DNA from: Patescibacteria group bacterium | Lineage (GTDB): Bacteria; Patescibacteriota; Microgenomatia; UM-FILTER-40-11 | Direction: 5' to 3' | Assembly: GCA_035530075.1 (NCBI GenBank) | Contig: DATKVM010000005.1 | Coordinates: 167,006-231,005 of the forward strand | Length of the DNA stretch: 64,000 nucleotides | The notes under the pieces: model-generated | What the model saw: the letters and a program-made list of their open reading frames with translations, nothing else | What the model was told of the DNA's origin: nothing | The model's database searches: none | Translations under genes and position numbers: made by a program | Shown here: one piece after another, positions 40,185 through 62,279 of the stretch | Position numbering within the stretch: position 1 is the stretch's first letter | Layout: each line of letters starts with the position of its first letter

Positions 40185-41300
40185 ATGAAAATTCAAATTC
40201 TTCAGGAAAACCTTAACCGGGGTCTTAATATCGCTTCGCGATCTATTTCTTCTAAAGCTCAACTTCCCATTTTGGCAAATCTGCTTTTGAAAACCGATAA
40301 AAACCGACTCCAAATTTCCGCCACTAATTTAGAAATGGGAATTGCTCTTTGGTTAGGAACAAAAGTCGAAAAAGAAGGAGAGATTACGGTTCCGGCGAAA
40401 ATCTTAACGGAAATAGCGGCTTCCTTGCCACCGGGGAAAATAGATTTAACCGCGGAAGGCAATCTCTTAAAAATTGTCACTGAAGGTTATGAGGCAACCC
40501 TTAACGGGATCCCGGCTGGCGAGTTTCCCAAACTCCCCAGCTATAACGGGGAGGCACTTTTCTCTCTTCCAACCGAAAAATTCTTGGAAGCGATTAATCA
40601 GGTTGCTTTTGCGGCCGCTTCCGATGAAGGGCGGCCGGTCTTAACCGGAGTTTTGTTTAAACTGCAAGGGAAAAGACTCTCTTTGGCGGCGACTGACGGA
40701 TACCGGCTTTCTTTAAAAACCTTGGAACTAGAAAACCCCACCAAAGAGGACGTTTCTTTGCTCTTGCCCGCCAAAACCTTAATGGAGGTGGGACGGATTA
40801 TTGCCGATGAAAAATCTCCCACGGTTAAAATGGGATTCACTCGAGAGCAAAATCAAGTGGTCTTTGTCTTTTCCGATTTGGAACTTTTCTCGAGGGTAAT
40901 CGAAGGAGAATTCCCTGATTATGAAAAAATCATCCCCCAAAATCTTACCAGCAAGCTGGTTTTAGATCGGGAAGAATTTAGCCGAGCCATTAAAGTGGTG
41001 GCTATTTTTGCCCGGGATTCAGCCAATATTGTCCGATTAAAAATCAACAAGGACTCTTTAGAGATGAGCGCTAATTCACCCCAAGTAGGGGAGAATAAAA
41101 ACTCTCTTTCGGCTAAGCTTGAAGGAGAAGAAGGGGAAATTGCCTTTAACTTCCGCTTTTTACAAGGATTTTTAGGGGCAGTAACCACGGAAGAGATTTC
41201 TCTGGAAACGAATGGTTCTTTAAACCCCGGGGTTTTTAAGGCAGTGGGGGATGACTCTTTTCTTCACATTATTATGCCGGTCAGGCTACAGACAGAGTAA
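40185..41300 (+). CDS. dnaN: DNA polymerase III beta sliding clamp
   Basis: 371 aa with a three-domain clamp layout and typical N-terminus MKIQILQENLNRGLNIASRSIS. AAAGGAG RBS. Confidence 0.95.
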   Translation: MKIQILQENLNRGLNIASRSISSKAQLPILANLLLKTDKNRLQISATNLEMGIALWLGTKVEKEGEITVPAKILTEIAASLPPGKIDLTAEGNLLKIVTEGYEATLNGIPAGEFPKLPSYNGEALFSLPTEKFLEAINQVAFAAASDEGRPVLTGVLFKLQGKRLSLAATDGYRLSLKTLELENPTKEDVSLLLPAKTLMEVGRIIADEKSPTVKMGFTREQNQVVFVFSDLELFSRVIEGEFPDYEKIIPQNLTSKLVLDREEFSRAIKVVAIFARDSANIVRLKINKDSLEMSANSPQVGENKNSLSAKLEGEEGEIAFNFRFLQGFLGAVTTEEISLETNGSLNPGVFKAVGDDSFLHIIMPVRLQTE

Positions 41301-41302
41301 GG

Positions 41303-41944
41303 TTACTTTTTCAGCTTCCAAATAATCTGGTGGGTTGCGGGATCAACTCCCTTGGAGCGAATCCAGTCTAAGACTTCCGCCCGAATTTCGGGAGTATCTT
41401 TAGTTAAGGAAATATAAAGAGTTAAAGGCCTAGTATAACCAATCCAATAATTCTCCGTTTTGTAAGGAACATAATCAAAAAGCGGCATGGCTTCGTAGGT
41501 TTTTCGGCTTAAGTCCCAGTAGTATTTTTCTACTTCTTCTTTGCTTGGAGTTTTACCCCCTGGCGGTGGTCCTAAGAGGTCAGGGACGGTTTTAAAGGAG
41601 AAGGTAAAATAAAAACTAGGGTCTTGGCTGTTTTTAACCTCGATTTTATATTGCGTGTCTGCCGCTAGTTCTTTTTTAGGAATTACTTCCAGAGTTTCTT
41701 TATCGTTTTTTACAGAAAACTCAAAGCTTGGAAAGGGGATAATCTGCCAGCCTTCAGTAGAAATTGGACGGTCAAAAGTTAATTTCAGGGTTTGTTTGGG
41801 ATAAACATTTTGTTGATTATCGGCCGGGTCGGTTCTAATTATTTTTGGAGTTAGTGGCGGAGGGAGTAATAGTTTTAGGCCAAGCAAAACCCCCACGATT
41901 CCTGCAAGAATAATAATCAATTTAGTTTTTTGACCGACTTTCAT
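41303..41944 (-). CDS. membrane-anchored protein with bacterial Ig-like domain
   Basis: 213 aa with an N-terminal TM. A beta-rich segment begins PADNQQNVYPKQTLKLTFDRPI, resembling Big/SbsA-type Ig-like domains. Confidence 0.4.
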   Translation of the reverse strand: MKVGQKTKLIIILAGIVGVLLGLKLLLPPPLTPKIIRTDPADNQQNVYPKQTLKLTFDRPISTEGWQIIPFPSFEFSVKNDKETLEVIPKKELAADTQYKIEVKNSQDPSFYFTFSFKTVPDLLGPPPGGKTPSKEEVEKYYWDLSRKTYEAMPLFDYVPYKTENYWIGYTRPLTLYISLTKDTPEIRAEVLDWIRSKGVDPATHQIIWKLKK

Positions 41945-41968: not shown

Positions 41969-44422
41969 TTACTGACAATTACCGCCAGAGCAAAAACGCA
42001 GGTAAACCGATGGTCCGCCGGGCATCCCTGCCGGCGGCCTTTCGATTAACCCGACTCCGCCTTGAAGATCAAAGTTGGCTTCGGCAACCAAGAGTTTCAG
42101 AATTGTGGGGTGGTCTTCCGGTGGTCCAAGAACGGTGCTGATTACGATGCCAATATGTCCCGGTATTCCCCGCCAAACCGCAATATCACCTAGATTCGGC
42201 TCGGCAACCTTTTTATAGAATGAAGGATAGTCGTCGGCATAAAGGCCGGCATGGTCGAAACCACGGTTAATATTTTGGCCAATAGCTTCCGTGATCGCAA
42301 TGACAAATTGAAGACACTGCAGCGGGCATTCTTCCGGCTGACATACTGGGGGACAGCCGGGGGCAGAGTCGTAGCAATGGTAATACTGGAGGACTTCTTT
42401 CAGCCCCATTAAAGCGTCTCCACCGGCCAGGGAAACATTATTAAGACAATTGCTAATTGACGATCGGCTATCCCAATTAATTCGATTTTGATCAAAATTG
42501 CAGGGTGGATGAGTCAATAAGCAAATAACTTCTTCGGCCAAATGGCGGGGAGCTTGACACTCTGGTGGTTTGGCCACTGGCAATCCAGGGGCAGAAGGGG
42601 GACCGCCGCCTCCTCGGCCCAAAAGAGCGCTGTCTTTAACTTGATTATTAGTAAAGAAGGTCAGAAAAGCAATTAGAGCAATCGGGCCAATGGCGACCCA
42701 TTTGACCCAGCCAAATTCGTCTTTTGCTGGTTCCCATTGGCCGGTTATTCCTCCCAGGATTAAATTACCTAAGCCGAAGCCTGAGGTAATAAAGCCACCA
42801 ACCTTTTTTAATCTGGAAAAGACTTTTTTAGTTAGCCACTCTCCCGCTGCTGCCAATGCAGTCGCAATTAAACCACCACCTGGGATAGCAATGTTGAGTA
42901 GCGATGCCAAGCCAATTTTGGTTAGAAAACCCGCGATTCCTTTAGCCGCCACTTGTCTAGCCCCGGTTTTGGCCGTTGCCCAAAGCGCCTCCAGACTTTT
43001 TTGGCTGGCTCTTCTTAACCAAAGCTTAACCGCTTGCCCGGCACCAGTCTTAAAAAACCAATTTTTTACTCCCTGAACAATTTTGCCTAGGGGAGCGGTC
43101 GGCCTGAAAGTAGTAAAGATTTGTCTTACACGATTAATTTGCCAGAAAGTCGGTTCTTGGGAAAAATATTGAGTTTGAAACTGGCGCAATTCGTTAGCCA
43201 ATTGGAATAATTGTTGGCTGGTAAGGGATTGGGGATCGCCGGTAAGCCTTTGTTGGATTTGTCCTAGTTTCTCTAGTTCTTCTGCAGGAACGCCACTGGT
43301 TGTCAAGCAATAGAAAAGAGCTTTTTTCGGCTGGTCATTTAAGTCAGGATGTTTTGTTTGCCAGTGATTGCCCCAAGGATTGCCGGAAATTTCATAAAGT
43401 CCCACAAAAGGAACAAGTTTTTCATTAACAACCATTACTAGCGGAGAAAAAAGAGAGGCTTCGCCAGAAAGTGAACTGGCAGGCACAGATTTTTCTGCTT
43501 CTTTAGCTAACCGAAGAGCACGAGGATAGATTTTCTCTAAAGGAATTCCTTTAAATTCTTCTTTTGCCTGCAAAGCAGCGGTTTTTGCCACTCTTTCCCA
43601 GCCCAAATCTTTGGCCAGGGGCGCGAGAGAAACCAAGTTAGCCTCCAGGGTTTCTTTTAAGCGAAGTGCTTGTTCTTGTCTTAATGGCTGACTAAGGGAT
43701 TGAAGGCGCTCGGTTAAAGAGACTCTCTGATTGGCAGGCTGGTTTAATTGCTCGGCGAGCAAACTGAAGGTTTCTAAGGAAAGCGGCAGTTCTTTGGCTC
43801 CTTCCAGGGCGGTAGCTGGTAGAGTTTGTTGCCCAAGCAGTCCTTCCCACTCCTTTTGAAGAATGGCTTCTTTTTCAATCTGAGAAAGATTAGGGTTTGC
43901 CGCTGTTTTTCGAATAGAATTGGAAAAATCGCTGTCCGGCGGGAGATTTTCAATAATAGTTTGCCATTCAGGAGGGGGTTGGGCTTCAGGTTGGATTGAA
44001 GTCTCTTTGAGGGCTTTCAAGAGTTTTCTTCGGTTGTTCAAATCCTTTGCTAACTTACTTACCTCTTGGGCTAGCCCTTCCTGCTTGGCTGCCTCTTCAG
44101 CTTCTTTCTCTTTTTTCCGGCTTAATTCATCTCCTAGTTCAGCTAAGTTAACCGGAACGCTCCCGCCACCAGTTAGTTCTTCCTGTTTGAAAAGCCATTC
44201 CAGCCGCTCAAAAACTTCCTCAAAGGCTAAACTCTCATATTCTTCCAGGCTAATGAGCGTTAAGTTCAAAGCGTAAACTCGCAGAACTTGGTCAATTTGA
44301 TCAAAATCGGTTTCTTTCCCCTGCCGGTTCTTCAAGTCCAGAAACGAGCGTGCTTGACTGAGGAGTGAGGGGAGGTCAGCTAAGTAATTAAGGGTTTGGT
44401 TTTGGTTGAGCTGGTTGACCAT
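41969..44422 (-). CDS. T4SS-associated polytopic protein with C-terminal CHAP/NlpC-P60-type peptidoglycan hydrolase domain (PrgK/TraG-like)
   Basis: 817 aa. A helical N-half is followed by Gly-rich TM helices. The C-terminal domain has a Cys then His arrangement (CLQFV...GDIAVWRGIPGHIGIV) as in CHAP amidases. It is translationally coupled to the VirB4 gene (35-nt overlap). Confidence 0.55.
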   Translation of the reverse strand: MVNQLNQNQTLNYLADLPSLLSQARSFLDLKNRQGKETDFDQIDQVLRVYALNLTLISLEEYESLAFEEVFERLEWLFKQEELTGGGSVPVNLAELGDELSRKKEKEAEEAAKQEGLAQEVSKLAKDLNNRRKLLKALKETSIQPEAQPPPEWQTIIENLPPDSDFSNSIRKTAANPNLSQIEKEAILQKEWEGLLGQQTLPATALEGAKELPLSLETFSLLAEQLNQPANQRVSLTERLQSLSQPLRQEQALRLKETLEANLVSLAPLAKDLGWERVAKTAALQAKEEFKGIPLEKIYPRALRLAKEAEKSVPASSLSGEASLFSPLVMVVNEKLVPFVGLYEISGNPWGNHWQTKHPDLNDQPKKALFYCLTTSGVPAEELEKLGQIQQRLTGDPQSLTSQQLFQLANELRQFQTQYFSQEPTFWQINRVRQIFTTFRPTAPLGKIVQGVKNWFFKTGAGQAVKLWLRRASQKSLEALWATAKTGARQVAAKGIAGFLTKIGLASLLNIAIPGGGLIATALAAAGEWLTKKVFSRLKKVGGFITSGFGLGNLILGGITGQWEPAKDEFGWVKWVAIGPIALIAFLTFFTNNQVKDSALLGRGGGGPPSAPGLPVAKPPECQAPRHLAEEVICLLTHPPCNFDQNRINWDSRSSISNCLNNVSLAGGDALMGLKEVLQYYHCYDSAPGCPPVCQPEECPLQCLQFVIAITEAIGQNINRGFDHAGLYADDYPSFYKKVAEPNLGDIAVWRGIPGHIGIVISTVLGPPEDHPTILKLLVAEANFDLQGGVGLIERPPAGMPGGPSVYLRFCSGGNCQ

Positions 44423-46370
44423 TCTCCATAATTATCTCACTTTTAAATCGAGGCGGTAAAGATGAAGTCGGGTTTTGGGCCACCGGCGGCGGGGGAGATG
44501 GGGGTGGAGAAGGAATTGGCGGAGGGGTAGGCGGGGGAGTAACGGGTGCGGTTGGTTGGGCTCTCTGTGCCAAAATTTCCTGAGGCTTGGAAGTGACCAG
44601 CTGGTGTTCTTGGGGAGAGGCCATCGCCCGCATGGCCACATGATTGCTGCCGGCGAAAAAGAGACCTTCGCCGACATCGCAAGCCAGAAGAAACTGTTTT
44701 TCTCCCTCGGAAAGATAAAAAACTTGACCAATCTTATCAATTGCCGCCGAATGCTGCTTCATTAAAATCTGAATGGAAGAGTTGGTGACAATCGCTTTGC
44801 CTAAGTCATTTTTTAAAAAGTCTTCTACATCTTGAGTGATGGTGGTTACTCCCAGGTAGTATTTTCGGGCTCTTTTGGCGATTGAATTTAAGAAGTTGGC
44901 CGAATCAGGCGTTTGCATCATAAACCAGGCCTCATCAACGACTAAGATTCTTTTTTTCAATTCCTTGCGTACCTTGGTCCAAATAAAGTCCAGAACAATA
45001 AACATGGCAATGGGGCGCAGAGTGCTTTCTATATCCCGGAGAGAAAAGACAGTAAAGGGATTGCGAATGTCAACGTTAGAATACTGGTCAAAAATCCCGA
45101 CAAATGACCCTTTCACAAATTTCTCAATTCGGTCCGCCAGCAAGCGGGATTGCGAGTCCTCCATGCCGATTAAAACTTTGTAAAGGTCTTCCATTAAAGG
45201 CGGTTCTTTCGTCTGGCTTCCTGGGTCTTGAGTAATTCCTTTCATCTGGTAAGTCATAATTAAAGCGCGGTCCAAAATTGCTTCTTCCGTGGCGTTTAGT
45301 TCGCCCATAATTACTTTGAAAAGAGAATGGAGAGAAAGGATTTTATTGTTAAGTTCGTTTTCTCCCTCTTCCCGGACCTGAGAAAGGTCAAAAGGATTAA
45401 CCTTGGCTTGAGAATTGAAACCAAAGCTAATATATTCGCCGCCGACCGCCTGACAGAGAGTTTCATACTCGTTTTCTGGGTCGATGACAATAATTTCAGC
45501 ATCAAACATTAGCGAGCGCAGAATTTCCAGCTTTACCAAATAGCTTTTGCCCGCTCCCGCTTTAGCAAAAACGACACTATTATAATTCTCCAAAGTGAAC
45601 CGATCGAAAATAATCAGGGAACCATTGTGTTCATTAATCCCGTATAAAATTCCCTCGTTAGCGGTTAACTCCGAAGAAGTAAAAGGAAAAGTTGTGGCCA
45701 GTGAGGTGGTGTCCATATTGCGGGTGATATTTAGGTAATCCAAACAAAGCGGTAGAGTGGTCTTAAAACCTTCTTCCATTTGGAGAGTGGCGTGTTTGGG
45801 AATAATCATCAGAGAGGCTAAAGTAGATTCCACTCCGCGGGAAATTTCGTTTAATTCTTCGATGCCTTCTGCTTGAATAGTCACGTAAAGCCCAAATTGG
45901 AAAAATCGCTCGGCTCCCTTAACTAACTGTTCCTGCATCACTCGGGCGTCTTCTAGTTTGGCTTGAGTGGCGGGGTCGGCCACTCGACCCCTTTCCATAT
46001 CGGTGGCAATTTCTGCCTCCATTTCGGCAATTTTTCTTCTCAAATCATCCAAAACCGTTTTGCTTTCGACGGGATAGACAAAGAGGGCAATATCGAGCGA
46101 ATGATCATAATTGACCAGAGGGGAAAGCCAGTTGGCACTAACATAACGAGGATAACCGGCGACAAAAAGAGTGCGGACGAAATGATTGTTAATTTTTAGA
46201 TGGTCAAAGTCCACTTCAATCGCCGAAGGCGCAATCGTATCTTGAGCCGTTGAGGTAGTTGGGGGCTGACTGGGACCGCTGGTCACGATTGGCGGTTTAA
46301 GATTGGGGATTTTCCCCTTTAGTTGCTTTAATTTATCGAGATTGATATTTTTTAATAAATCAGTTTTCAT
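44388..46370 (-). CDS. VirB4/TraE/PrgJ-family type IV secretion ATPase
   Basis: 660 aa with Walker A (AKAGAGKSY) and Walker B (RILVVDEAWFMM). The domain order matches VirB4/CagE-TrbE, and the C-terminal tail is Pro-rich. Confidence 0.85.
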   Translation of the reverse strand: MKTDLLKNINLDKLKQLKGKIPNLKPPIVTSGPSQPPTTSTAQDTIAPSAIEVDFDHLKINNHFVRTLFVAGYPRYVSANWLSPLVNYDHSLDIALFVYPVESKTVLDDLRRKIAEMEAEIATDMERGRVADPATQAKLEDARVMQEQLVKGAERFFQFGLYVTIQAEGIEELNEISRGVESTLASLMIIPKHATLQMEEGFKTTLPLCLDYLNITRNMDTTSLATTFPFTSSELTANEGILYGINEHNGSLIIFDRFTLENYNSVVFAKAGAGKSYLVKLEILRSLMFDAEIIVIDPENEYETLCQAVGGEYISFGFNSQAKVNPFDLSQVREEGENELNNKILSLHSLFKVIMGELNATEEAILDRALIMTYQMKGITQDPGSQTKEPPLMEDLYKVLIGMEDSQSRLLADRIEKFVKGSFVGIFDQYSNVDIRNPFTVFSLRDIESTLRPIAMFIVLDFIWTKVRKELKKRILVVDEAWFMMQTPDSANFLNSIAKRARKYYLGVTTITQDVEDFLKNDLGKAIVTNSSIQILMKQHSAAIDKIGQVFYLSEGEKQFLLACDVGEGLFFAGSNHVAMRAMASPQEHQLVTSKPQEILAQRAQPTAPVTPPPTPPPIPSPPPSPPPPVAQNPTSSLPPRFKSEIIMENGQPAQPKPNP

Positions 46371-46371
46371 C

Positions 46372-47025
46372 TTAAGCCTTCTTTTGGGCCTCTCTTTCAG
46401 CCGCGATCATTTCCGCATTATAAATGCCATAATAAAGCTTTATTAGCTCTTTGCTGATTAACTGTTTGGCGACTAAGCCCAGCCGGGCAGAGAGCTTAAT
46501 TAAATGGTCTCTTTTGGGGGTCAAAGCGGTCTTGGCTTTGGTAATGATATAGGTTTTAGCGTAGGGAAGCGAGGTAGTTTTCTTAAAAATTGAGGTGAGG
46601 GTTGGTGCTATTCCTAGCTCTAAAGAGGAAAAGGGGATAACGACATAAAATTTTTTGTCCAGAACATTGTTTTTTTTCACCATCTCGGCTACAAATTTAC
46701 GGTAGGAATTAATTAGGCCGGCCAAAAGGGGAGAGCTGCTCTTTTTCGCTTCTTGTTTTTCTAAAAGGTCCAAGTAGGAAGAGATATCTTTCCTTTCCGA
46801 GCGGAGTAAAATTTGAATTGAAAAAGTGAGTGAGTTCAAAAGAGCTCCATAGGCATAAATAATGGCTTCCTGTTCTCGCTCGGAGAGCAAGTCGAAATTT
46901 AGAGAAGAAACCGATAGAACCATCGCACACGAGCCGTCTTTGAGGATAACTAAATCGTCCTGAATATCCTCTATTGGCAGATGTTCTTGAGTGCTGGCAC
47001 GGATGGGAATTTGGGCAGGGTCCAT
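46372..47025 (-). CDS. hypothetical T4SS-locus protein (soluble)
   Basis: 217 aa with no TM. Its stop lies 1 nt before the VirB4 start, indicating operon coupling. Confidence 0.4.
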   Translation of the reverse strand: MDPAQIPIRASTQEHLPIEDIQDDLVILKDGSCAMVLSVSSLNFDLLSEREQEAIIYAYGALLNSLTFSIQILLRSERKDISSYLDLLEKQEAKKSSSPLLAGLINSYRKFVAEMVKKNNVLDKKFYVVIPFSSLELGIAPTLTSIFKKTTSLPYAKTYIITKAKTALTPKRDHLIKLSARLGLVAKQLISKELIKLYYGIYNAEMIAAEREAQKKA

Positions 47026-47102
47026 ATGTTTTTAGAACTTGAGAGAGGGAGAGCAGGAGAGTAGAAGTTTTTATACTCTTCTACTCTTACACTCTTCTAC
47101 TC

Positions 47103-47894
47103 TTACTTGCTGATAACTTCAATTGGCGAGATAATTTCGCCTTTCAATTCCACTTTGATTATATCAAAGCGGTAGCCTTCTCTTTCCGTTTCTATTTCGT
47201 AAAGACCGCTGGGAAGGGGAGTCGCGCTTCTAAATTGGCCCAATTTATTGGTTCTAAAAGCGCGCACCGGATTCCCGGCGACATCGCGAATTTCAAGAAT
47301 GGCTGACTCGATAATTTTTCCCTGCTGGTCATGGGCGAAACCGGAAAGTAGATTGGGCATCGAAGGGGTAGCCGGAATAGCCATATTCGTAAATTTAGCC
47401 GCGACTGCCGGCGCGAGGGGTGGTTTGGGGATACTTGGCGCCTGAAAGATAGTGGCTGGTCGAGGAGGACTGACCAGTGGTGGGGGAGGAGTGGATCTAG
47501 TGATTGCCGGGGAAGGTGGAGCGGTGGGAGCACTGAGCGGCTTAACCAACGGCAGGGGGGAAACGGGAGAAGTAGTTTTTTTGGTGGAAATCAAATCTTC
47601 TCCTTCTCCTCGCTTTTTCCAAGTATATTGAGTGGGGGAGTAAATTCTTTTAAAGAAGGCAATAATCCAGACATCAATTGGCCGCCCCTCAAACGGCACA
47701 AAAGCGGCGGCTGCCCCGACCCCGCCAAAAAGAAGAATTAAAAACCACTTAATGAAACTGGGGGGATTAATGGCGTAAACAATTAGGGCGAGGACTATCC
47801 CGGCGGCCAATTTGCCGAATTGCCTTAAGGTCATATCGCCGACGAGGCGAAATTCATAACTGGTGATTGGTTGGGGTACTGGGTGTTGTTCCAT
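47103..47894 (-). CDS. membrane protein: N-terminal 2-TM hairpin (VirB3/PrgI-like?), Pro-rich linker, C-terminal carboxypeptidase-regulatory-like beta domain
   Basis: 263 aa with two adjacent hydrophobic helices near the N-terminus. A long P/S/T/A-rich linker leads to the C-terminal QGKIIESAILEIRDVAGNPV...GLYEIETEREGY beta-sandwich motif. Confidence 0.4.
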   Translation of the reverse strand: MEQHPVPQPITSYEFRLVGDMTLRQFGKLAAGIVLALIVYAINPPSFIKWFLILLFGGVGAAAAFVPFEGRPIDVWIIAFFKRIYSPTQYTWKKRGEGEDLISTKKTTSPVSPLPLVKPLSAPTAPPSPAITRSTPPPPLVSPPRPATIFQAPSIPKPPLAPAVAAKFTNMAIPATPSMPNLLSGFAHDQQGKIIESAILEIRDVAGNPVRAFRTNKLGQFRSATPLPSGLYEIETEREGYRFDIIKVELKGEIISPIEVISK

Positions 47895-47991
47895 CGATAT
47901 TTAAATCTTACTTTTTCCGGCAACCGCTTTCAACGGTAACAAAGTGGGTCAGAAACTACTTAAAGACAGTTAAATTTGCTACCATTAGATT

Positions 47992-48519
47992 ATGCTAGAA
48001 CTTTTTGGCTTAGGGGCCTTGCTGTTGGCCGCCATTTTCTGGGGTCCTTACGTGATGAAGACTGCCAAGAAAGGCGCTCCCTTTGTTCCTTTAGAGCCGG
48101 AAGTAGTCGAGGAGGTAATGAAATTAGCCAAAGTCGGCGAGGATGATGTTTTTTATGATTTGGGCTCTGGTGACGGTCGATTAGTAATTGCCGCGGCTTT
48201 AAGAGGGGCCAAGGAAGCTTACGGAGTAGAAATTGACCCCTTACGCGTTTTTTACTCCCGACTTTGGCTAAAAATTATGCGCTGTCGAAACGCTAAGATT
48301 TTCAAACAAGATATTTTTAAAACCGATTTGTCAGGGGCGACGGTGATTACCCTTTACTTGCTTCAGGAAACCAACGACAAACTAACAGAGAAGTTAAAAA
48401 AAGAATTGCCCAAAGGAGCGCGAGTAGTTTCCATTGCCTTTTCTCTTCCTGGCTGGGAGCCGGTTAAAGTCAGCCCCATTGGTCCAATTTATGGACCGGT
48501 ATATCTATATATTGTTTAA
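47992..48519 (+). CDS. small class I SAM-dependent methyltransferase
   Basis: 175 aa. SAM motif I is VFYDLGSGDGRLVIAAA and the acidic motif II is YGVEID. Confidence 0.6.
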   Translation: MLELFGLGALLLAAIFWGPYVMKTAKKGAPFVPLEPEVVEEVMKLAKVGEDDVFYDLGSGDGRLVIAAALRGAKEAYGVEIDPLRVFYSRLWLKIMRCRNAKIFKQDIFKTDLSGATVITLYLLQETNDKLTEKLKKELPKGARVVSIAFSLPGWEPVKVSPIGPIYGPVYLYIV

Positions 48520-48592
48520 TAGTTCCATTAAATTGCAAATCTTACCTTTTGCTCTTGAACGGAGAGAGGCTTTAAAGTAAAATAGGGTTGAA

Positions 48593-50644
48593 ATGAAAGA
48601 AAAAGGACCCAACGGTTCAGAGTTTCAAGCTCAACCAGCTTCAGACGAAACAGAGAAAGAGAAGACCGAAAGACTGGAAGAGGAACGGAAGCAGGCGCAA
48701 GCTGCGCAGGAAGAGAAGAGGCGGCAACAGCAACCAGAAAAGAAAAGAGGAGAGAGGAGAAGAGAGGAAAGGCCTACAGGGCAAGAACGAGCCGCAAAAA
48801 AACCAGAGGATCAAAGGGCAGCCGAGAGGGCCGCTCAGCTTCCGCAGAGCGAGTCGGTAGCAAGGGAGACTCCGGGCCGCACTTTTGAAGAACGCCAGGC
48901 TGATTATCGAGCAAAGAGAGAAGACTTAGAAGCAAGGATAAAACTGCTAGATGACCAGATTGATGACTTAAAAGCCCAATCTCCTGGGGCGAATGAAGCC
49001 GAGATTGCCAAAACAGAGGCTGAAAAGGCCAGCGTAAACAGGGAATGGAAAGAAACTATTGAGAGGATGGGGAGAGAGCAGGACGAGAGGATCAGAGAAC
49101 TATCCTCTTTTTCCGCGCCAGAGAGAGCAAGGTATGGAGTTCCTGAGGTGGCTTTTGACCCTAACAAACTTGAGGAACAAATGGCTTGGTTCCAAAGAAC
49201 CATTGCCCGAATAGAATCACAAAAACTGCCTTTCACCGAAGCGTGGCAGGATACCTCAGCCCTTAAATGGTTTATTTCTTCCATTGACCTCATAAAATAT
49301 CCGGAACATCTAGGCACTCTACGCACTTTCCAGCAAATATATGAAAATCGCCGGATGCTGCATGATTTTATGTATGTCTATGAGAAGGCAGGGGGAACAG
49401 ACGATATCATCGGCATTGCTCATTATGCTAATTTAGAGAACTTGGAACAATTGATTAAGGGAGATGTTTGGGTGGAGACAGAGGGAGGGATGGTAGCTAG
49501 AGATCCGGTTAAGGCGATGCTTTGGTTCCAAGGGAGAGCAGATAAAGTATTAGAAGAAAGAAAAAAGGTGGCTGAAGCGGCAGCAAAGATGGAAGGAGCC
49601 AGTGGAAGCAAAAAAAAGGAATATAAAACAGAAAAAGATGAAGCAGAAGAAAGAGAAAGGAGCATAATTAGTGAAATGCAGGTTAGGGCAAGGGGAGAGG
49701 TGGTTGAAATAGATAAAGACGCAAAGAAAATTGTTAAGCCCGACGATAAAGAAGGAGCATATTATCGCTTGGGCGGAAGGCTTTTCTCTGCTTTTGGGTT
49801 TGCCGCCCAATACAACATCACCCTTAACGGCTCAGGAGATTTTTTGGTTGGTCGCTTGTTGAATATGAAAGGCCATTTGCTTGACGACAATTGGGCTGGC
49901 CGGGAAAAGCTTTGGAAGTATTTTAGGCAAGAATCTTTTGCCCGTCCCCTTTTTAGTGATAAGCATTTAGGTGATGGCTTTGAAACAAGCGAAAGCGAAG
50001 TTGGTCTGGAAACAACCGAAGAAATTATAGACGAAAAGAAGGGCATTTCCGCCCGAATAACCAGAATAGTCGATGATGACAAACATGGCAAATTTAAAAA
50101 TTTAAGTTTCCGAGCCCATAACGTTGATGGCTCAGCCTACGCTTCCCGTTGGTGCGATCAGAATGTTAAGGCTGACAAGTGGCGGTCCTATGTCCTCTCC
50201 GGAGCAGGATATAGTCAGAGTCCGGATATGCAGACATTTATGGAAATGTCAAAATACTTAGAGCATATTAAAGGTGGTAAAAGGAGAAACAAATTTACAG
50301 AGGGGGTAATGAAAGGATTGATTGAGTTTTATAAAAAGGAAGGGCTGGTGTTTAAAAAAAGCGATGCGCAAAGACTCTTTGGCGATAAAGAGGCATATTG
50401 GAAAAGTGCGCAGGTTGAAGCCGCTCTTAATACCGCAACTCCAGGAATGTTAAGCGCCGAGGGCAGAGAAAAGCTCCTTAAAGAATATGTTGGGGCAAAC
50501 GAATTTACCAGGGGAGTGCGGCATCTTCGTGATAGTCTTGGGAGAAGACCACTCCTTTTCTTCTTAGGTTTCCTTTGGGACGCCCTTTGGGGAGCCTTAG
50601 GTGAAGCAGCCGAACTAAAAGCGGATAAGAAAAAAAGAAGATAA
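48593..50644 (+). CDS. hypothetical protein with highly charged low-complexity N-terminal region
   Basis: 683 aa. The first 100 aa or so are E/K/R/Q-rich, followed by a globular region with no recognised motifs. No TM is present. Confidence 0.45.
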   Translation: MKEKGPNGSEFQAQPASDETEKEKTERLEEERKQAQAAQEEKRRQQQPEKKRGERRREERPTGQERAAKKPEDQRAAERAAQLPQSESVARETPGRTFEERQADYRAKREDLEARIKLLDDQIDDLKAQSPGANEAEIAKTEAEKASVNREWKETIERMGREQDERIRELSSFSAPERARYGVPEVAFDPNKLEEQMAWFQRTIARIESQKLPFTEAWQDTSALKWFISSIDLIKYPEHLGTLRTFQQIYENRRMLHDFMYVYEKAGGTDDIIGIAHYANLENLEQLIKGDVWVETEGGMVARDPVKAMLWFQGRADKVLEERKKVAEAAAKMEGASGSKKKEYKTEKDEAEERERSIISEMQVRARGEVVEIDKDAKKIVKPDDKEGAYYRLGGRLFSAFGFAAQYNITLNGSGDFLVGRLLNMKGHLLDDNWAGREKLWKYFRQESFARPLFSDKHLGDGFETSESEVGLETTEEIIDEKKGISARITRIVDDDKHGKFKNLSFRAHNVDGSAYASRWCDQNVKADKWRSYVLSGAGYSQSPDMQTFMEMSKYLEHIKGGKRRNKFTEGVMKGLIEFYKKEGLVFKKSDAQRLFGDKEAYWKSAQVEAALNTATPGMLSAEGREKLLKEYVGANEFTRGVRHLRDSLGRRPLLFFLGFLWDALWGALGEAAELKADKKKRR

Positions 50645-50660
50645 GGTAATAATTTTTTTA

Positions 50661-52073
50661 TCAGAGTCGTCCAATTGCTTTTTGCCACCAACTTAGTGGA
50701 GTTCTTATGCCAGGAGGCTTCAGGCCACGGGCTGTTTGAATATCAAACATTCTGTTTCCCTCTTCTATTTTCCTTATTGCCCCAATCTGAGGACCGAGAG
50801 TTCGATCAACTCCGCCCGAAATGGTTCCTTGGGCCCAACCGACCGTTTGGCCAATGGCGGTTCCAAAAGTTCCAAACCCAGCGGCCTTAAAGGCTTCGAG
50901 GACTACGTTGGGAATACTTCCGACCGCCATAAGCAAACCCAACCCTAGAATTGCTGTTAAAGCTCCTCCTCCTACTCCTAAGACTGGAGGAGTCCATGTT
51001 GGCCCTTTTCCCACCTCAATAATTACACTGGCTAGGAGCAAGAAAAGCGCCACGGCTGGAAAGACTAAAACATTGGCCAGGAGGTTTAGAAACCAGGCGC
51101 CAAATCCTCCTTTACTGCCCGGGACGGCTCCAAGAAGTATTTGGATTGGACCAATAATGACGGAGACAATAATGGAGATATAAGATTTGAGAAGGTTAAA
51201 AAATAGCTTAAGGACTAAGTAAAGAGCGATAATGAGGAAAATTAAGGTGAAAATAACGCCCCCAATTCCAGCTAGAATCCCCACCAAAATATTAGGGTTT
51301 AATCCTGCAAAAAAGGTCTTCACTACAACTCCCTCCCACACCGCCTTAATGCCGCCCCCCAACACTAAACCATAAGCTTCACCGAAACCGAGACTAACAA
51401 ATTTACGTTGTTCGGCGGCAATCTCGGCCATACTTCCCAAAAGACCACTTTGCCCGATAATTAAAACACCCACATAGATAAGAACATAGATTAAATCAAT
51501 CAGTAAGCCAGCAATGGCATAAGAGAAAGTAACTAAGATTAGGGCAATAACTAGTTTTGGAATGGAGTTTTGAATTGTTACTGCTGTTTTAGGGTCAATT
51601 TTTACCCGAAACATGATGGCCAAACCAGTAAAGAGAAAGATTAAAACAAAGAAAAGATAAGCCAAATTGCGTGAGGCTCGCCAAAGAGGGAGTAGGCTAC
51701 TTAAGCCTCTAAAGCCGATGCCGCCTTGGGCGTAAGCTGGTTTAACCAAGCCAAAGTTCCTTCCGAGATAGGCAAAATATTCGATTGAAGAAGCGGGAGG
51801 ATTAGTATACATTGAAACAATCAAATTGCCAACCGCCGTTAAGGCACCCCCCTCACTTTTGTTAGTATTTTCTGAAGGGGCAATTGATTTAATAACAGAG
51901 ATAGCGAGGTCTTTATAAGTTTCATTAGTGTGGCTTTCTAGGTTTAGATCCGGAAGAGTAAGAGCTTTTTCGTAATCGTCAAGATTAGTGCTTCCTTTGT
52001 AGGCTAGGGTGGACGTAGCATTTATAAATAGAAAAACAAAAGATAATGGAATTATAACCTTGAAGAATTTCAT
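50661..52073 (-). CDS. VirB6/TrbL-like polytopic membrane protein
   Basis: 470 aa. A signal peptide and extracytoplasmic N-domain precede at least 5 TM helices with Gly-rich loops. It sits in the T4SS-like locus. Confidence 0.5.
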   Translation of the reverse strand: MKFFKVIIPLSFVFLFINATSTLAYKGSTNLDDYEKALTLPDLNLESHTNETYKDLAISVIKSIAPSENTNKSEGGALTAVGNLIVSMYTNPPASSIEYFAYLGRNFGLVKPAYAQGGIGFRGLSSLLPLWRASRNLAYLFFVLIFLFTGLAIMFRVKIDPKTAVTIQNSIPKLVIALILVTFSYAIAGLLIDLIYVLIYVGVLIIGQSGLLGSMAEIAAEQRKFVSLGFGEAYGLVLGGGIKAVWEGVVVKTFFAGLNPNILVGILAGIGGVIFTLIFLIIALYLVLKLFFNLLKSYISIIVSVIIGPIQILLGAVPGSKGGFGAWFLNLLANVLVFPAVALFLLLASVIIEVGKGPTWTPPVLGVGGGALTAILGLGLLMAVGSIPNVVLEAFKAAGFGTFGTAIGQTVGWAQGTISGGVDRTLGPQIGAIRKIEEGNRMFDIQTARGLKPPGIRTPLSWWQKAIGRL

Positions 52074-52114
52074 TCTCTTTTAGCTTAAATTTTTTTTCAA
52101 TCCTTGTCAATCAG

Positions 52115-54115
52115 TTAGAAACTGCAAGTTGGGCATAAAGGGTCAAAACTTTGAATGTCAATTCCTTGCGGCCTTAAAGCGCAACGTTCCAGACAATATC
52201 GCTTTCTGGCCGCTTCCTGCTGGTAATTCAATGCCGATGAACCGACGCCTACTTGATATCCTTCGACTTTAAACTCCGCTTCTCCGGCTAAGGGTTCATC
52301 CTTATTGCTCGGCTTTATCGCTTCCGGAATAGCGTGATTAAGGTAAGTTGACTGCTCATTAAAAGTTTCCCCGCCGGGCAGTTTCCCTCGGCTTTTATTA
52401 ATTAAAGCCACTTTCGTTTGGGTTACGGTTACCCACTGCCAAATGTTGTCAATTAGTTTCAAAATCGGCTCCAAGACTTTAGTAATGAAGCTGGCGGGAG
52501 TAGAAAAATTGGACTGAAGAGTCGCTAATTGATTAACGGGATTATCCTCGGCCGGGTTTCCCGATTGGCAGGTGATTTCCCACCCCGGCGGCTCAGGCAC
52601 ATTGGCGGCCACTTTAATCGCCATCTTTGGTGGGGGCTCGCAAGCATTAAAAAGCCCGCAAGCAATTTTGGTTGACCCTAGAAGCCGGGTCCACCAGGAG
52701 GGGAGAGTCACTCCTGTTTCCGGAATTTTGCTTGGCTTGCTTGCTGGCCCAAGATCTTCTTTGTCCACCACATAGTGTTTTAGTTTAGTTTTAAGCGGGG
52801 TTGAATCCAGGTTTAGGTTTTGCCGTAAGGCTTGAGGTAAGAGTCGATTAAGACCTAGATAAAGGTTTTGCTCCATTACGGAAAAATTAGGCACCGCCTC
52901 TTTCTGCAGCGTTAAAGAACCTTCTGCCGACTGGCCGCTGCCAGCCGCCAATACCCGTTGTTGTTGGCCAGGGGGCAGAGTTGCCGGAGTGTATTGGGAG
53001 GTTTCGCTGCCTTTATTAAGGCTAAAGTCAGTGCAAATTAAGTTATCTTTCACCGCTAAAATCATTGGCTCGTCTCCCGAGCCACACTCGTTACATTCGC
53101 TGGAGCTGGTAACATAGTAAGCGTGTTGCTTCCCCGGGCAGCGGTTTAATGTTGGGGTGGTAGCAGAGGGGGTAATCCTTTGAGTGTCGCCGCCGCCGCG
53201 GTGACTCTTTAAGAAACTGGCGGTTTTGGCGGAGCCGAAAATGCTCCAGCTCCCGGGGCGATGGGGGTCATAGGAAAAAACGGCAAACATCTTAAAACTT
53301 GAATCTCCTGCCCATTTTGGCCAAACCTTTTCCAGCATTTGGCCAATTTCTTCGTCACGGTAACAGGGGGGAGTACAGGTGCCCGCCACCCCGGTTTCTA
53401 AAGCGTAATAAGGGCTGGGAATACCAATTTCATCATATCGGCAATTATTCATCGGCGGAATTGCCGAGCAGGGACCATTAACAAACTGGTCATATTCATT
53501 AATGGAGGAACCAGCAAAAAGCCCATAGAACCCCGCTTTCCCGCCAGGGTTAGTGAAAAAAGAGCCGTTGATGAATGACGGGTTTAATTTGTCTACCATA
53601 GGAGACAGGAGGATTACTTTTGATCCCAGAATTCCTGCTTCTTGAAACAAATTTTTGAGGAACTGAGAATATTGATAGACCCTGTTTCCCTCCGTCTCCC
53701 CTCCGCCTTCATTTTGGTGGTTTGGTTCGTTCCAGGGCATAAAGTAAACTTTGTTGGGAAAGGGGATACCTTGTAAGGTAGCTGTCCAAGCGCGAGCCTG
53801 ATTTTCGTCGGGAGTTTTTTCGGGATAATGACCGCGAATGACGAGATTAATGTTTTGATATTTGGGGTCGCTGACAATTTTGGCAATCTTGTCGCCATCG
53901 CCAGGACAAGCCATAACTACTACCCAGCCGCCTGGACCGACTAATCCGGCTGCCTGGTCAAATTCTTGCCAGTGGTCGCCAATATTGACTCCGACTTTAT
54001 TTTGGGCTCTTGCCGAACCAGCGGTTAGGAAGAGCAAAGCTGGGAAAATCAGGAGAAAGACCAGTTTTTTCATTGCGCCCTCCGGGTTGCCATCATAGTG
54101 GTCCGGGAATTTCAA
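52115..54115 (-). CDS. secreted putative glycoside hydrolase (GH5-like NEP motif) with Cys-rich C-terminal region
   Basis: 666 aa with a signal peptide. PWNEPNHQ resembles the GH5/clan GH-A acid/base strand. Many Cys lie in the C-terminal half. Confidence 0.4.
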   Translation of the reverse strand: MKFPDHYDGNPEGAMKKLVFLLIFPALLFLTAGSARAQNKVGVNIGDHWQEFDQAAGLVGPGGWVVVMACPGDGDKIAKIVSDPKYQNINLVIRGHYPEKTPDENQARAWTATLQGIPFPNKVYFMPWNEPNHQNEGGGETEGNRVYQYSQFLKNLFQEAGILGSKVILLSPMVDKLNPSFINGSFFTNPGGKAGFYGLFAGSSINEYDQFVNGPCSAIPPMNNCRYDEIGIPSPYYALETGVAGTCTPPCYRDEEIGQMLEKVWPKWAGDSSFKMFAVFSYDPHRPGSWSIFGSAKTASFLKSHRGGGDTQRITPSATTPTLNRCPGKQHAYYVTSSSECNECGSGDEPMILAVKDNLICTDFSLNKGSETSQYTPATLPPGQQQRVLAAGSGQSAEGSLTLQKEAVPNFSVMEQNLYLGLNRLLPQALRQNLNLDSTPLKTKLKHYVVDKEDLGPASKPSKIPETGVTLPSWWTRLLGSTKIACGLFNACEPPPKMAIKVAANVPEPPGWEITCQSGNPAEDNPVNQLATLQSNFSTPASFITKVLEPILKLIDNIWQWVTVTQTKVALINKSRGKLPGGETFNEQSTYLNHAIPEAIKPSNKDEPLAGEAEFKVEGYQVGVGSSALNYQQEAARKRYCLERCALRPQGIDIQSFDPLCPTCSF

Positions 54116-54548
54116 ATTTGGTTACATCTACTCCGGTAATAGTTTGAATCAGTTTTAAGATAAACCAAATTCCCAAGAAAACCACTAGCCCGCCAATCGC
54201 GTAAGTAAGAGTTGAGCGAGCTTTTTGCATCGCTTTGGCGTCTCCGCCTGCCGTTAAAAGTTGAAATGAGCCGACAATGAGCATCACAAACATTGCTAAG
54301 CCAGCAATTGGCGTTAAAATGCGGACAATATTGATAAAAAGGCATTCAAATCCCTGGATGGTCGCCACGTCTTCTGTCCCCGGAATTTGGCCAAGGCAGT
54401 TTTTAGAAATATCCCCCCAAGGTTGGGGAAAAGATTCTTGAGCGAGCACCGGTGGGGATAAGAAGTGAGAAGCAAAAAGCGAGACAGTGCTTATTAGCAC
54501 AAAACAGCCAGACAACAAGCCAACAAGATAACTGCTAATCTTCTTCAC
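54093..54548 (-). CDS. VirB2/TrbC-like pilin paralog 1
   Basis: Signal peptide, then helix, a TAGGDAK loop, a second helix and a short tail. This architecture is shared with 7 paralogs. Confidence 0.6.
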   Translation of the reverse strand: MKKISSYLVGLLSGCFVLISTVSLFASHFLSPPVLAQESFPQPWGDISKNCLGQIPGTEDVATIQGFECLFINIVRILTPIAGLAMFVMLIVGSFQLLTAGGDAKAMQKARSTLTYAIGGLVVFLGIWFILKLIQTITGVDVTKFEIPGPL

Positions 54549-54646: not shown

Positions 54647-55081
54647 CTATTTGACCGTAAAGGTAGGGATTTGCAAATTAAGAATATTGACGCCGAAAAG
54701 CGCTTGGATTAAAGCGATAATGGCCCAAGCGGCAAAAACAATCGCCAAACCGATTAAAGCATTAGTAATTCTTTTGCGGGCAGTTTCCGTCCCGGCCTTA
54801 TCGCCACCGGAGGTAATCCATTGGATTCCCCCGATAACTAAGACAAAGAAAAAGATAATGGCGGCCGCAATCAAGACCAACCTAATTGCTCCCTGAAGAA
54901 TACTCACCAGGGTAATATTAAGCAGTCCCTCAAACCCCGAACCCTCACCCGGTTCGATTTGAATTTCCGACGGCAGCGGCGCTACGGTCGTTCCCGCTAA
55001 AGCCACGGAAGGGTTAATTAAAAAGACACCAACCGCTAGCGAAATACTCGCTAAAACCTTTCTAACTTTACTCATATTCAC
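54647..55081 (-). CDS. VirB2/TrbC-like pilin paralog 2
   Basis: Shares the architecture, with conserved WITSGGDKAG...ITNALIGLAI. Confidence 0.6.
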   Translation of the reverse strand: MNMSKVRKVLASISLAVGVFLINPSVALAGTTVAPLPSEIQIEPGEGSGFEGLLNITLVSILQGAIRLVLIAAAIIFFFVLVIGGIQWITSGGDKAGTETARKRITNALIGLAIVFAAWAIIALIQALFGVNILNLQIPTFTVK

Positions 55082-55094
55082 CCCCTTTCGGTAA

Positions 55095-55475
55095 CTAAAA
55101 AGACGGTAGTTTTAATCGAGTGAGTTTAATGTCAAAGAAAAACTCGATTGCTCCTATTATAGCAAAGATTGAAAGGAGAATGGCAAGGCCGATTAAAGCG
55201 TTGGTAATAGTTTTTTGGGCCGATTCCATTCCCGCCTTGTCGCCTCCGGCGGTAATCCATTTAATCGCGCCGATTAAGAAAATAAAAACAAAAACAACCG
55301 CTCCGCTAATTAGAAAGAGGTTGATAGCCAAAGTCAGTCCTTTTTGAAGGAAAGCCAGGCCGGAAAGTTGGCTGATTGGAGTAGGCAATATCGGATTGTG
55401 AATGTCCGGCATCGGCGTGACTGCCGCCAGAAGCTTTTGGCCAAGAAGAGTAGTGTTCAAAACTAAAGATATCAT
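55095..55475 (-). CDS. VirB2/TrbC-like pilin paralog 3
   Basis: Conserved WITAGGDKAG...ITNALIGLAI and a two-helix hairpin. Confidence 0.6.
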   Translation of the reverse strand: MISLVLNTTLLGQKLLAAVTPMPDIHNPILPTPISQLSGLAFLQKGLTLAINLFLISGAVVFVFIFLIGAIKWITAGGDKAGMESAQKTITNALIGLAILLSIFAIIGAIEFFFDIKLTRLKLPSF

Positions 55476-55882
55476 TTAGGGGCTAAATCTTTAATAAATT
55501 TGGCCACCGAGAGAATATTGGGAATGCCGATTAAACTGCCGATAAGGTCAATAAGGAAGGTAGCCGATAAGACCAAAATTAAGCCAATTATGCCGGTCGT
55601 AATTTGTTTTTGGGCATTTTGCAGTTTGGTTTTGTCGCCGCCGGAAGCCAGCCAGCCGATGGCGCCAGTGAATAGAACAAAGGTAAACCAAATAACGGCA
55701 ATAATCGTCATTACCCCGATAATGTTCGAAAGAATATTGACAAAAGTGCTAATCGCCGTAATTTCGTTAGTTAGAGGCCAGCTCTCCCCTCCCAAGATGC
55801 CAATTCCCTCCAGGGGCCCTAACTGAACTCCGGAAGGGGTCGGCCCGGCGGCTAAAACTGATTTAGTCAAATTAAGGTCCAT
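55472..55882 (-). CDS. VirB2/TrbC-like pilin paralog 4
   Basis: Conserved WLASGGDKTK...ITTGIIGLIL. Its start overlaps the neighbouring gene. Confidence 0.6.
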   Translation of the reverse strand: MDLNLTKSVLAAGPTPSGVQLGPLEGIGILGGESWPLTNEITAISTFVNILSNIIGVMTIIAVIWFTFVLFTGAIGWLASGGDKTKLQNAQKQITTGIIGLILVLSATFLIDLIGSLIGIPNILSVAKFIKDLAPK

Positions 55883-56399
55883 AAATTGTTGGCACTAAAA
55901 TCGCCCTGGCATCGCCAAAGATTAACCAGCCAAAAATGGCGGCCAGGACGAAGGAGCCGGCGACAAAAAGAAGTCCGAGCAAAGATTGCCAAATTCTTGC
56001 CCAGGCTTGCTCAACTTTTTTGGCGTCGCCCCCGGCTCCCATAAAACTGTAGCCGGCAATAATAATATTAAAAAAGGCAAAGAGCCCAGCCGCACCAATG
56101 AGTAATTTAAGCAAAACGTTCATAAATTTAACTAGGCCAGTTTGGAAATCACCATATTCGGAAACCCCCTGGGGAGCAGCGATAGAACCAAAAAAGCTTG
56201 CTGGGGCGGGCGTTCGACATTGGGGACAGTTTTCAGGTAAAGAACATCGCGTGTCATTACAGGGGATACCTCCTATATTGGCGGGTTTACCGCACAAATA
56301 GGGACAAGTGTCTGCCAAAACCGTTGACGCTGAGCAAAAAAGAAAGAAGACTAAAAAAATTAAGATGGGCGTTATTGCCTTCGCAAATTTATTTTTCAT
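55872..56399 (-). CDS. VirB2/TrbC-like pilin paralog 5 with Cys-rich N-terminal module
   Basis: A signal peptide and an 8-Cys segment (CPYLCGK...CNDTRCSLPENCPQC) precede a C-terminal GAGGDAKK two-helix pilin module. Confidence 0.55.
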   Translation of the reverse strand: MKNKFAKAITPILIFLVFFLFCSASTVLADTCPYLCGKPANIGGIPCNDTRCSLPENCPQCRTPAPASFFGSIAAPQGVSEYGDFQTGLVKFMNVLLKLLIGAAGLFAFFNIIIAGYSFMGAGGDAKKVEQAWARIWQSLLGLLFVAGSFVLAAIFGWLIFGDARAILVPTIYGP

Positions 56400-57879: not shown

Positions 57880-57884
57880 AAGAG

Positions 57885-58682: not shown

Positions 58683-58703
58683 TAACTAGATACCAACGAA
58701 CAT

Positions 58704-62277: not shown

Positions 62278-62279
62278 TA

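Follow-up and report, generated by a model that had tools for sequence, protein, structure and literature searches.

Patescibacteria's type IV secretion system (T4SS), its missing relaxase and its position beside dnaA have already been described in papers from 2020 to 2025. According to the accessible parts of a recent survey (Quinonero-Coronel et al. 2025, PMC12102498), the VirB4 ATPases of Patescibacteria form a monophyletic clade allied to the mating-pair formation class MPF-FATA, TrsD is the commonest partner, homologues of PrgI/VirB3 and VirB6 are present, and VirB2 genes occur in arrays of 2-11 with a mean identity of 25%, especially in Microgenomatia and Saccharimonadia. The same parts of the survey give only 109 relaxases in thousands of Patescibacteria genomes, rarely near virB4, and place the genes for type IV coupling proteins (T4CPs) mostly far from virB4, with few nearby, and the T4SS itself near dnaA, dnaN and rnpA. 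In Southlakia epibionticum ML1, the locus SEML1_0006-0019 was found by transposon sequencing to be essential for epibiotic growth; it encodes PrgI (SEML1_0010), the product of the adjacent gene (0009), VirB4 (0008), a VirB6-like protein (0013) and pilins (0014-0019) (Wang et al. 2023, PMC10633639, accessible text). A 2025 FEMS review, in its accessible text, calls the Patescibacteria T4SS unique among monoderms for its essentiality and potential pili (PMC12857230). Here we analyse a locus of this kind in an ultra-small Patescibacteria group bacterium (candidate phyla radiation, CPR) of the class Microgenomatia (assembly GCA_035530075.1), contained in a 64-kb stretch, hereafter the window, of the 322-kb contig DATKVM010000005.1 (positions 167,006 to 231,005); window proteins are recorded under the locus tags VMW04_03030 and VMW04_03035.

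The locus is very probably a chromosomal, origin-proximal Patescibacteria T4SS, descended from the conjugation machinery of monoderms (MPF-FATA) and freed from the DNA-processing genes. Its composition is of the Gram-positive type, as an initial annotation of the window had proposed, with a PrgI-like protein, a TrsD-like protein, a VirB4 of the CD1110 type and a CHAP-type hydrolase.

Gene content of the locus

The listing of open reading frames (ORFs) together with family scans resolved the locus into two minus-strand gene blocks, split by two plus-strand genes. Block 1 runs from 56740 down to 50661 (-) and holds an array of six pilin genes, followed by the genes for a secreted protein resembling glycoside hydrolases (GHs) of clan GH-A and for a 470-aa VirB6-like protein. 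Block 2, from 47894 down to 41303 (-), encodes in order a PrgI/VirB3-like protein, a TrsD-like protein, VirB4, an 817-aa CHAP-type protein and a 213-aa protein with a Big_5 domain. The limits first given to the locus, 41969-54115, cut off both the pilin array and the final 213-aa gene. All ORFs of the locus are intact.

VirB4 (660 aa, 44388-46370, -) has a Pro-rich C-terminal tail. It scored 387.1 bits, against a cutoff of 325, with the NCBIfam model NF045971 ('VirB4-like conjugal transfer ATPase, CD1110 family'), over model positions 184-734 of 752, and matched P-loop_TraG (E = 3e-29) and AAA_10 (E = 2e-13) in Pfam. The Walker A motif AKAGAGKS lies at residue 269 and the Walker B motif ILVVDE at residue 475. 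The match to HerA/DUF87 was far weaker (36.7 bits), and the objection foreseen in the initial annotation, that the ATPase might belong to FtsK/HerA or another non-VirB4 family, therefore does not apply. The first ~180 positions of NF045971 are uncovered by the polypeptide, and CagE_TrbE_VirB was matched only at E = 0.055.

The TrsD-like protein (217 aa, 46372-47025, -) was detected with NCBIfam TrsD/TraD (E = 9.7e-11). Where it also matches models of VirB4, it does so at N-terminal positions (VirB4_plasma 103-280, TIGR00929 6-123); its orthologues carry PF26593 TraC-like, and trsD is present in 78 of 80 related loci. Judged by these matches, the protein appears to resemble a detached VirB4 N-terminal domain, mirroring the part absent from the 660-aa VirB4; the accessible part of the Patescibacteria survey also likens TrsD to the N-terminal part of VirB4 (PMC12102498). 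A recent duplication of the VirB4 N-terminus was considered and rejected: BLASTP found no similarity, and the kinship is visible through family models only.

The PrgI/VirB3-like protein (263 aa, 47103-47894, -) exceeded the Pfam cutoff for PrgI (PF12666, 31.8 bits against 27). It has two hydrophobic segments within residues 26-68, a Pro-rich linker and a C-terminal beta-sandwich, and CarboxypepD_reg was matched at E = 7e-5. Both the VirB4-family ATPase and the VirB3-like candidate with two transmembrane (TM) segments, as initially annotated, were thus borne out by family models. The 77-nt spacer between prgI and trsD contains a tandem 16-nt unit (47071-47102; TTATACTCTTCTACTC / TTACACTCTTCTACTC).

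The six VirB2-like pilin paralogues of block 1 are arranged in tandem on the minus strand. Three of them exceeded the cutoff of 26.6 bits for PF18895 (T4SS_pilin): paralogue 3 (136 aa, 55472-55882; 33.5 bits), paralogue 5 (144 aa, 54647-55081; 29.8 bits) and paralogue 6 (151 aa, 54093-54548; 32.9 bits), the last with an additional weak match to the Mbov_0395 pilin-like conjugal transfer family. The others are paralogue 1 (113 aa, 56399-56740; E = 8e-5), paralogue 2 (175 aa, 55872-56399; E = 8e-4, below the cutoff) and paralogue 4 (126 aa, 55095-55475; E = 1.2e-4), the latter two placed in the family also by alignment with the paralogues. Paralogue 2 has a Cys-containing N-terminal part, and its hydrophobicity is consistent with a signal peptide and two TM segments. 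The proteins are 21-30% identical to the first paralogue, and a two-helix hairpin with a GGD-K loop is common to them. This array is the main evidence for a pilus. Two outlying pilin-like genes (228 and 394 aa; 61591-63464, -), 5 kb from the main array, encode proteins with Cys-rich N-terminal extensions and C-terminal PF18895 matches (E = 7e-4 and 8e-4, below the cutoff); the pilin hairpin is shared in the alignment, and an equivalent pair occurs in the related loci L082 and L084 (relatives are referred to by such numbers where needed). The N-terminal part of the 394-aa protein contains repeated CCP..G...DCP.GTD..K.CC units.

The 470-aa polytopic membrane protein (50661-52073, -) was recognised by its fold. 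Neither the protein nor its 116-sequence profile matched any family in Pfam (including TrbL, PF04610) or NCBIfam, or any PDB sequence, while its AlphaFold2 (AF2) model (predicted local distance difference test, pLDDT, 78) has the VirB6/DotA fold. The family carries no annotation and counts at least 456 homologues in a large database, and the gene is syntenic in relatives. Of the TrbL/VirB6-like label originally attached to the protein, VirB6-like is retained, on the fold, the polytopic character and the T4SS locus, whereas the TrbL sequence profile gave nothing. VirB6 is called 'scarce' in Microgenomatia in the accessible part of the 2025 survey, and divergence is suspected there (PMC12102498); the 470-aa family is a candidate, on its predicted fold, for this scarce VirB6.

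The gene after virB4 encodes an 817-aa membrane protein with a CHAP-type end (41969-44422, -), and between its ATG and the virB4 stop there is an overlap of 35 nt. About 490 N-terminal residues without a signal peptide, read as a helical cytoplasmic part, are followed by 2-3 hydrophobic segments and then by the Cys-rich CHAP-type end, which would be extracellular. The CHAP assignment is made because orthologues match PF05257: two of them, 59% and 56% identical, do so with a best E of 1.5e-7, the L002 (Shapirobacteria) orthologue reaches 26.3 bits against a cutoff of 26, and Cys703, His756, Glu781 and Asn783 are invariant in three aligned sequences. An enteropeptidase match of the 817-aa profile was discarded as not meaningful. 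The description of this protein as a polytopic CHAP-type hydrolase coupled to virB4 therefore needed a partial correction: the overlap stands and the CHAP end is, via the orthologues, probable, but a protein with a long cytoplasmic N-terminal part and 2-3 TM segments is not strongly polytopic. From its sequence features it is predicted to be the functional analogue of VirB1, PrgK and TraG. In Gottesmanbacteria-like relatives, the same slot after virB4 is taken by a protein of 590-1,000 aa (mostly 720-810 aa) that ends in Peptidase_M23 rather than CHAP, and the two slot families are alike in the TM region only (hhalign probability 96.5%).

Block 2 ends with the gene for a bitopic 213-aa protein (41303-41944, -), which has an N-terminal TM segment and an Ig-like Big_5 domain (PF13205, 36.2 bits; cutoff 23.6). 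In L002, L015, L022 and L023 this slot is filled by orthologues, and other relatives have proteins there (clusters c11 and c18) that are not detectably related to it. It was considered as a VirB8 analogue, for which a profile search gave no support.

Between the pilin array and the VirB6-like gene lies the gene for a secreted protein of 652 aa (52115-54073, -). The mechanically called ORF has 666 aa from a TTG at 54115, but a start at the ATG at 54073 is more likely, since a database orthologue and the signal peptide indicate it. In the AF2 model (pLDDT 89.6), a TIM barrel spanning about residues 27-290 is joined to a beta-rich, Cys-containing C-terminal half, and there are two long beta-hairpin repeats. 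Foldseek matched the model to GH26, GH128, GH113 and GH10. GH26, GH128, GH5 and GH1 were nearly tied and an assignment to GH5 in particular did not hold, so the initial label 'GH5-like' should read 'clan GH-A-like'; secretion and the clan itself were upheld by the signal peptide, the fold, the Asn-Glu-Pro motif and E226. N115-E116-P117 follows strand 4 (109-112), E226 is in strand 7 (222-230), and these residues are at least 90% conserved in 60 homologues. On the model, this would be the catalytic layout of clan GH-A, with predicted roles as acid/base Glu and nucleophile Glu. The gene has the same place between pilin array and VirB6-like gene in L002, L022 and L082-L084. Matches of the 666-aa profile to SAKe designer proteins stemmed from a repeated short motif and were discarded. 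Apart from the results given above, searches with the 817-, 666-, 470-, 683- and 213-aa proteins in Pfam, NCBIfam and PDB sequences yielded no meaningful match.

The two plus-strand genes between the blocks were also characterised. The first (47992-48519, +), divergent from prgI, encodes a membrane-anchored S-adenosylmethionine (SAM) methyltransferase of 175 aa with an N-terminal hydrophobic segment; it matched DOT1 and PrmA in Pfam and, below the cutoff, an NCBIfam protein-lysine N-methyltransferase model (E = 5.5e-30), and is found at the same place in L004 and L082. The second (48593-50644, +), convergent with the VirB6-like gene, encodes a 683-aa protein whose N-terminal region is charged and in which a hydrophobic helix near the C-terminus precedes a basic tail. 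It has no family match in Pfam or NCBIfam and only 20 relatives among 1.84 billion representative proteins. Two explanations for this gene were tried and set aside. A degenerate T4CP would not fit the lack of a Walker A motif and of similarity to the relatives' T4CP-like protein, and an orphan insertion, suggested by the absence of matches in 43 loci, was overturned by positional homologues in L082 (E = 5e-95 to the family hidden Markov model) and L084. With these and, weakly, L002 as positional homologues, the gene is regarded as a fast-evolving resident of the locus, and its position suggests that the protein belongs to the T4SS.

Position at the replication origin and conservation in relatives

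The locus abuts dnaN-dnaA-rnpA at the replication origin, in agreement with the core chromosomal position beside dnaA-dnaN initially reported. Both dnaA (38639-39991, +) and dnaN (40185-41300, +) were identified by Pfam matches; dnaN is convergent with the locus, its stop and that of the 213-aa gene being 2 nt apart. Only two perfect TTATCCACA DnaA boxes occur in the window, at 38566 and 39898, the dnaA-dnaN spacer has two boxes with one mismatch each, and the cumulative GC-skew has its minimum at 38-40 kb. Because the DnaA boxes and the skew minimum place the origin at about 38.5-40 kb, the T4SS starts ~2 kb from where replication probably begins. Its transcription runs towards the origin, the whole 15-kb region being head-on to replication. 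This orientation, with virB4 convergent with dnaN, is retained in most relatives. A scan for promoters and terminators gave counts no higher than the shuffled expectation.

Relatives were collected with a VirB4 scan of one genome per GTDB species, which gave at least 582, the best 80 being 57-77% identical; gene order was counted in 43 long loci with about 10-kb flanks from genomes of the Microgenomates group. Where sensibly labelled, the relatives are metagenome-assembled genomes (MAGs) of Shapiro-, Gottesman-, Woese-, Beckwith-, Roizman- and Levybacteria or of the 'Microgenomates group'. Many MAG records with a Microgenomates-type locus (L004-L007 and others) are titled 'uncultured Gammaproteobacteria', 'Clostridia bacterium' or 'Bathyarchaeia archaeon', and such titles are unreliable for taxonomy. 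The order prgI-trsD-virB4 is nearly universal in the long loci (prgI precedes trsD-virB4 in 43 of 44), and 40 of the 43 contain dnaN and dnaA as well, as a rule 2-6 kb downstream of virB4. Counted over 44 long loci from Shapiro-, Gottesman-, Woese-, Beckwith- and Roizmanbacteria-type MAGs, dnaN and dnaA follow prgI-trsD-virB4 in 41, and the longer order prgI-trsD-virB4-hydrolase-dnaN-dnaA is seen in about 40 of 43. The wider layout is seen in L082-L084, reached via homologues of the secreted protein: a pilin-like pair, UppS, an extracytoplasmic function (ECF) sigma factor, a polyprenyl synthase, the pilin array, the GH-like gene, the VirB6-like gene, a convergent variable gene, prgI, trsD and virB4.

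That the same order stands beside dnaN and dnaA in dozens of species-level genomes argues for a resident apparatus and not an integrative conjugative element; nothing speaks more strongly against an integrative element than the fixed origin-proximal position across the class. The synteny comparison thus upheld the view, first put forward from the window, of a resident apparatus.

The block between the pilin clusters (56815-61120, +) encodes a polyprenyl synthase, an amino-acid kinase, a NUDIX protein, an ECF sigma factor, two small ORFs and UppS. It is syntenic in L082-L084. The small ORFs may include an anti-sigma factor, and control of the pilin or T4SS genes by the ECF sigma factor is conceivable. 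Beside it is a gene for a small '23S rRNA-intervening sequence protein' (PF05635; 61234-61566, -), which recurs near T4SS or pilin genes in L022, L028 and L081. Outside the T4SS genes, the window is housekeeping: pyruvate phosphate dikinase, GroES/EL, an aminoacyl-tRNA synthetase, YidC, Jag and RnpA, genes for the wall and for polyprenyls, and an ECF sigma factor. Two apparent envelope proteins are uncharacterised, a 612-aa ORF without a family match (25186-27024, -) and a 999-aa DUF4012 protein (30307-33306, -), the latter next to genes of polysaccharide synthesis (Wzy_C, Polysacc_synt). The sole tRNA (6314-6385, +) is overlapped by two ORFs (6171-6620, -, and 6357-6878, +) that are probably not genes.

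Proposed function of the apparatus and alternative explanations

By analogy with VirB-type systems, TrsD and the VirB3-like protein would tether a VirB4 hexamer to the membrane; the hexamer would pull pilin hairpins out of the membrane and feed them to the VirB6 platform, giving a short pilus or a channel. The CHAP hydrolase, and perhaps the glycosidase-like protein too, would open the wall locally, either the cell's own or the host's, and the structure would contact the host cell, with the divergent pilin paralogues diversifying surface recognition. If the Southlakia genetics are a guide, the apparatus would serve a host-dependent lifestyle by exporting proteins or signals or by taking up host material, and not conjugation.

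Several observations weigh against a working T4SS of this kind in the window. The 817-aa protein itself had no CHAP match in Pfam at E ≤ 1, a profile search identified no VirB8-like component, and three of the six arrayed pilins, as well as both outlying ones, fall below the Pfam cutoff. To our knowledge, a pilus made by a Patescibacteria-type T4SS has never been seen, and its role in the Microgenomates group is read from genes alone. Coupling proteins are a further point. A T4CP-like ATPase of 724-808 aa is encoded next to prgI in 23 of the 43 related loci, divergently from it in 20 of the 23; the one scanned, in L013 (5509-7701, -), scored 29.4 bits with TrwB_AAD_bind (cutoff 20.5) and 22.1 with TraG-D_C (cutoff 22). 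It may therefore be that the ancestral locus still transports a substrate dependent on a T4CP, and a T4CP may be encoded outside the 64-kb window, on the 322-kb contig or elsewhere in the genome. The gene is absent at that place in the window and in the closest relatives (L002, L004 and L022). With about half of the related loci carrying such an ATPase, the lack of a coupling protein is a property of the lineage or the window and not of the system. In Gottesmanbacteria-like loci, the T4CP-like gene adjoins NadD-like and NadE genes and a gene for a 1,150-1,420-aa protein.

A bolder account of the locus, which we think unlikely, assigns its unusual proteins to the machine itself. The 652-aa protein would stand in for VirB5 as a structural part of the T4SS not recognised before, an enzyme at the tip or stalk whose cutting of a host surface polysaccharide lets the pilus or channel reach the host membrane; VirB4 would be the sole ATPase of a conduit for the uptake of host material, and the 683-aa family a lineage-specific substrate or regulator.

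We consider it improbable, and markedly so, that the locus is a DNA-uptake machine like Helicobacter ComB or archaeal Ced, serving transformation or acting as a nucleotide source for a genome unable to make nucleotides. The absence of a relaxase and a T4CP from the window would suit such a machine, as would the co-localisation of the T4SS with comF, recG and radA in the class ABY1, noted in the accessible part of PMC12102498. VirB4 also matched the DNA-import ATPase models CedB (E = 2.8e-12) and CedD (E = 1.9e-4), but weakly and far below the cutoffs, and the CedB match is what any VirB4-class ATPase gives. There are no competence genes in the window. Competence in Southlakia requires comEC and type IV pili, and a comEC deletion is viable whereas the T4SS is essential (PMC12857230, accessible text), so the essential role there is not DNA uptake.

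It is very improbable that the genes form the transfer part of a conjugative or integrative element, whether still active or domesticated recently, whose relaxase, coupling protein and integrase lie outside the window. The VirB4 family NF045971 was defined on clostridial conjugative elements, the T4CP-like genes of related loci combine TrwB_AAD_bind and TraG-D_C, and the GC content of the locus is slightly above that of its flanks (0.45-0.47 versus 0.41-0.43). Against such a module, the position beside dnaN and dnaA is identical in about 40 species-level genomes whose VirB4 proteins are 57-77% identical to that of the window. A Pfam scan of all window ORFs of ~100 aa or more found no T4CP, relaxase or integrase/recombinase family in the 64 kb, in line with the initial statement that neither VirD4 nor a relaxase is present, and tblastn with the relatives' T4CP-like protein returned nothing in the window (E > 0.2). 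The search for att-like direct repeats flanking the locus found only short chance matches, and the nearest tRNA, the only one of the window, is 35 kb away. The rarity of relaxases in Patescibacteria, which seldom lie near virB4 (PMC12102498), points the same way.

The idea that the locus is in decay, left over by chance from an ancient conjugation system and assembling nothing any more, would account for canonical parts being missing or undetectable (VirB8, T4CP) and for many components lacking a family match, but it is scarcely credible, because all ORFs are intact, the Walker motifs and the catalytic residues of the CHAP and GH domains are conserved, order and content are kept across the whole class in ~1 Mb genomes, which shed unused genes, and the homologous system is essential in Southlakia (PMC10633639, accessible text).

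Comparison with known systems

We know of no T4SS other than that of Patescibacteria that is essential for its bearer. This T4SS is probably the principal machine by which a vast uncultured radiation meets its hosts, a case already in print, and the interpretation first drawn from the window, although supported, had likewise been published (PMC10633639, PMC12102498, PMC12857230). The window adds a clean example from the Microgenomates group, together with leads: the VirB6 candidate, the conserved glycosidase-like partner and the variable modules. The accessible parts of the three papers contain no description of the GH-A-like partner gene or of the exchange between CHAP and M23. An incremental observation is that about half of the sampled relatives have a T4CP-like gene adjoining the locus, compared with the few near virB4 in the accessible part of the published survey. 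The CHAP/M23 domain and the T4CP-like gene (found in 23 of 43 relatives but not here) differ from one sister lineage to another and offer a natural comparison for the purpose of the coupling protein.

Among diderm systems, the Bordetella Ptl and Brucella VirB T4SSs resemble this locus in working without a coupling protein, and the multi-pilin T4SSs of Bartonella and Anaplasma in having tandemly amplified, diversified pilin genes, which are thought to vary surface recognition. All four, however, are of the VirB/D4 type with VirB7, VirB9 and VirB10 cores and VirB11, none of which is found here.

The MPF-FATA systems (Prg/Pcf of pCF10, Tra of pIP501, Trs of pGO1/pSK41 and CD1110 of the C. difficile element CTn2) share more: a CD1110-family VirB4, PrgI/VirB3-like, TrsD and VirB6-like proteins, a wall hydrolase of CHAP type (PrgK, pIP501 TraG), here a probable one, and no outer-membrane core components. 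They differ in being borne on plasmids or integrative conjugative elements with a relaxase, oriT and T4CP, and in having adhesins instead of pilins, whereas the window locus is chromosomal and origin-proximal, with VirB2-like pilin arrays and no DNA-processing genes in view. The hydrolases are also built differently, that of the window having a large cytoplasmic N-terminal part and not, as in PrgK and pIP501 TraG, an N-terminal anchor followed by an SLT domain.

The closest comparison is with Southlakia. The window is from the Microgenomates group and not from Saccharimonadia, and its locus is known from genes alone; its VirB6-like protein was recognised by fold only, its hydrolase is one long protein with a probable CHAP end, the gene for a secreted clan GH-A-like protein stands between the pilins and VirB6, and no NTF2/VirB8-like protein was found. 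The two loci nevertheless have in common the order prgI-trsD-virB4, cell-wall hydrolase genes just downstream of virB4 and a VirB6-like protein, and the window shares with Southlakia and the surveyed Patescibacteria T4SSs the six divergent pilins (21-30% identity here), a locus without a relaxase and the position beside dnaA, dnaN and rnpA.

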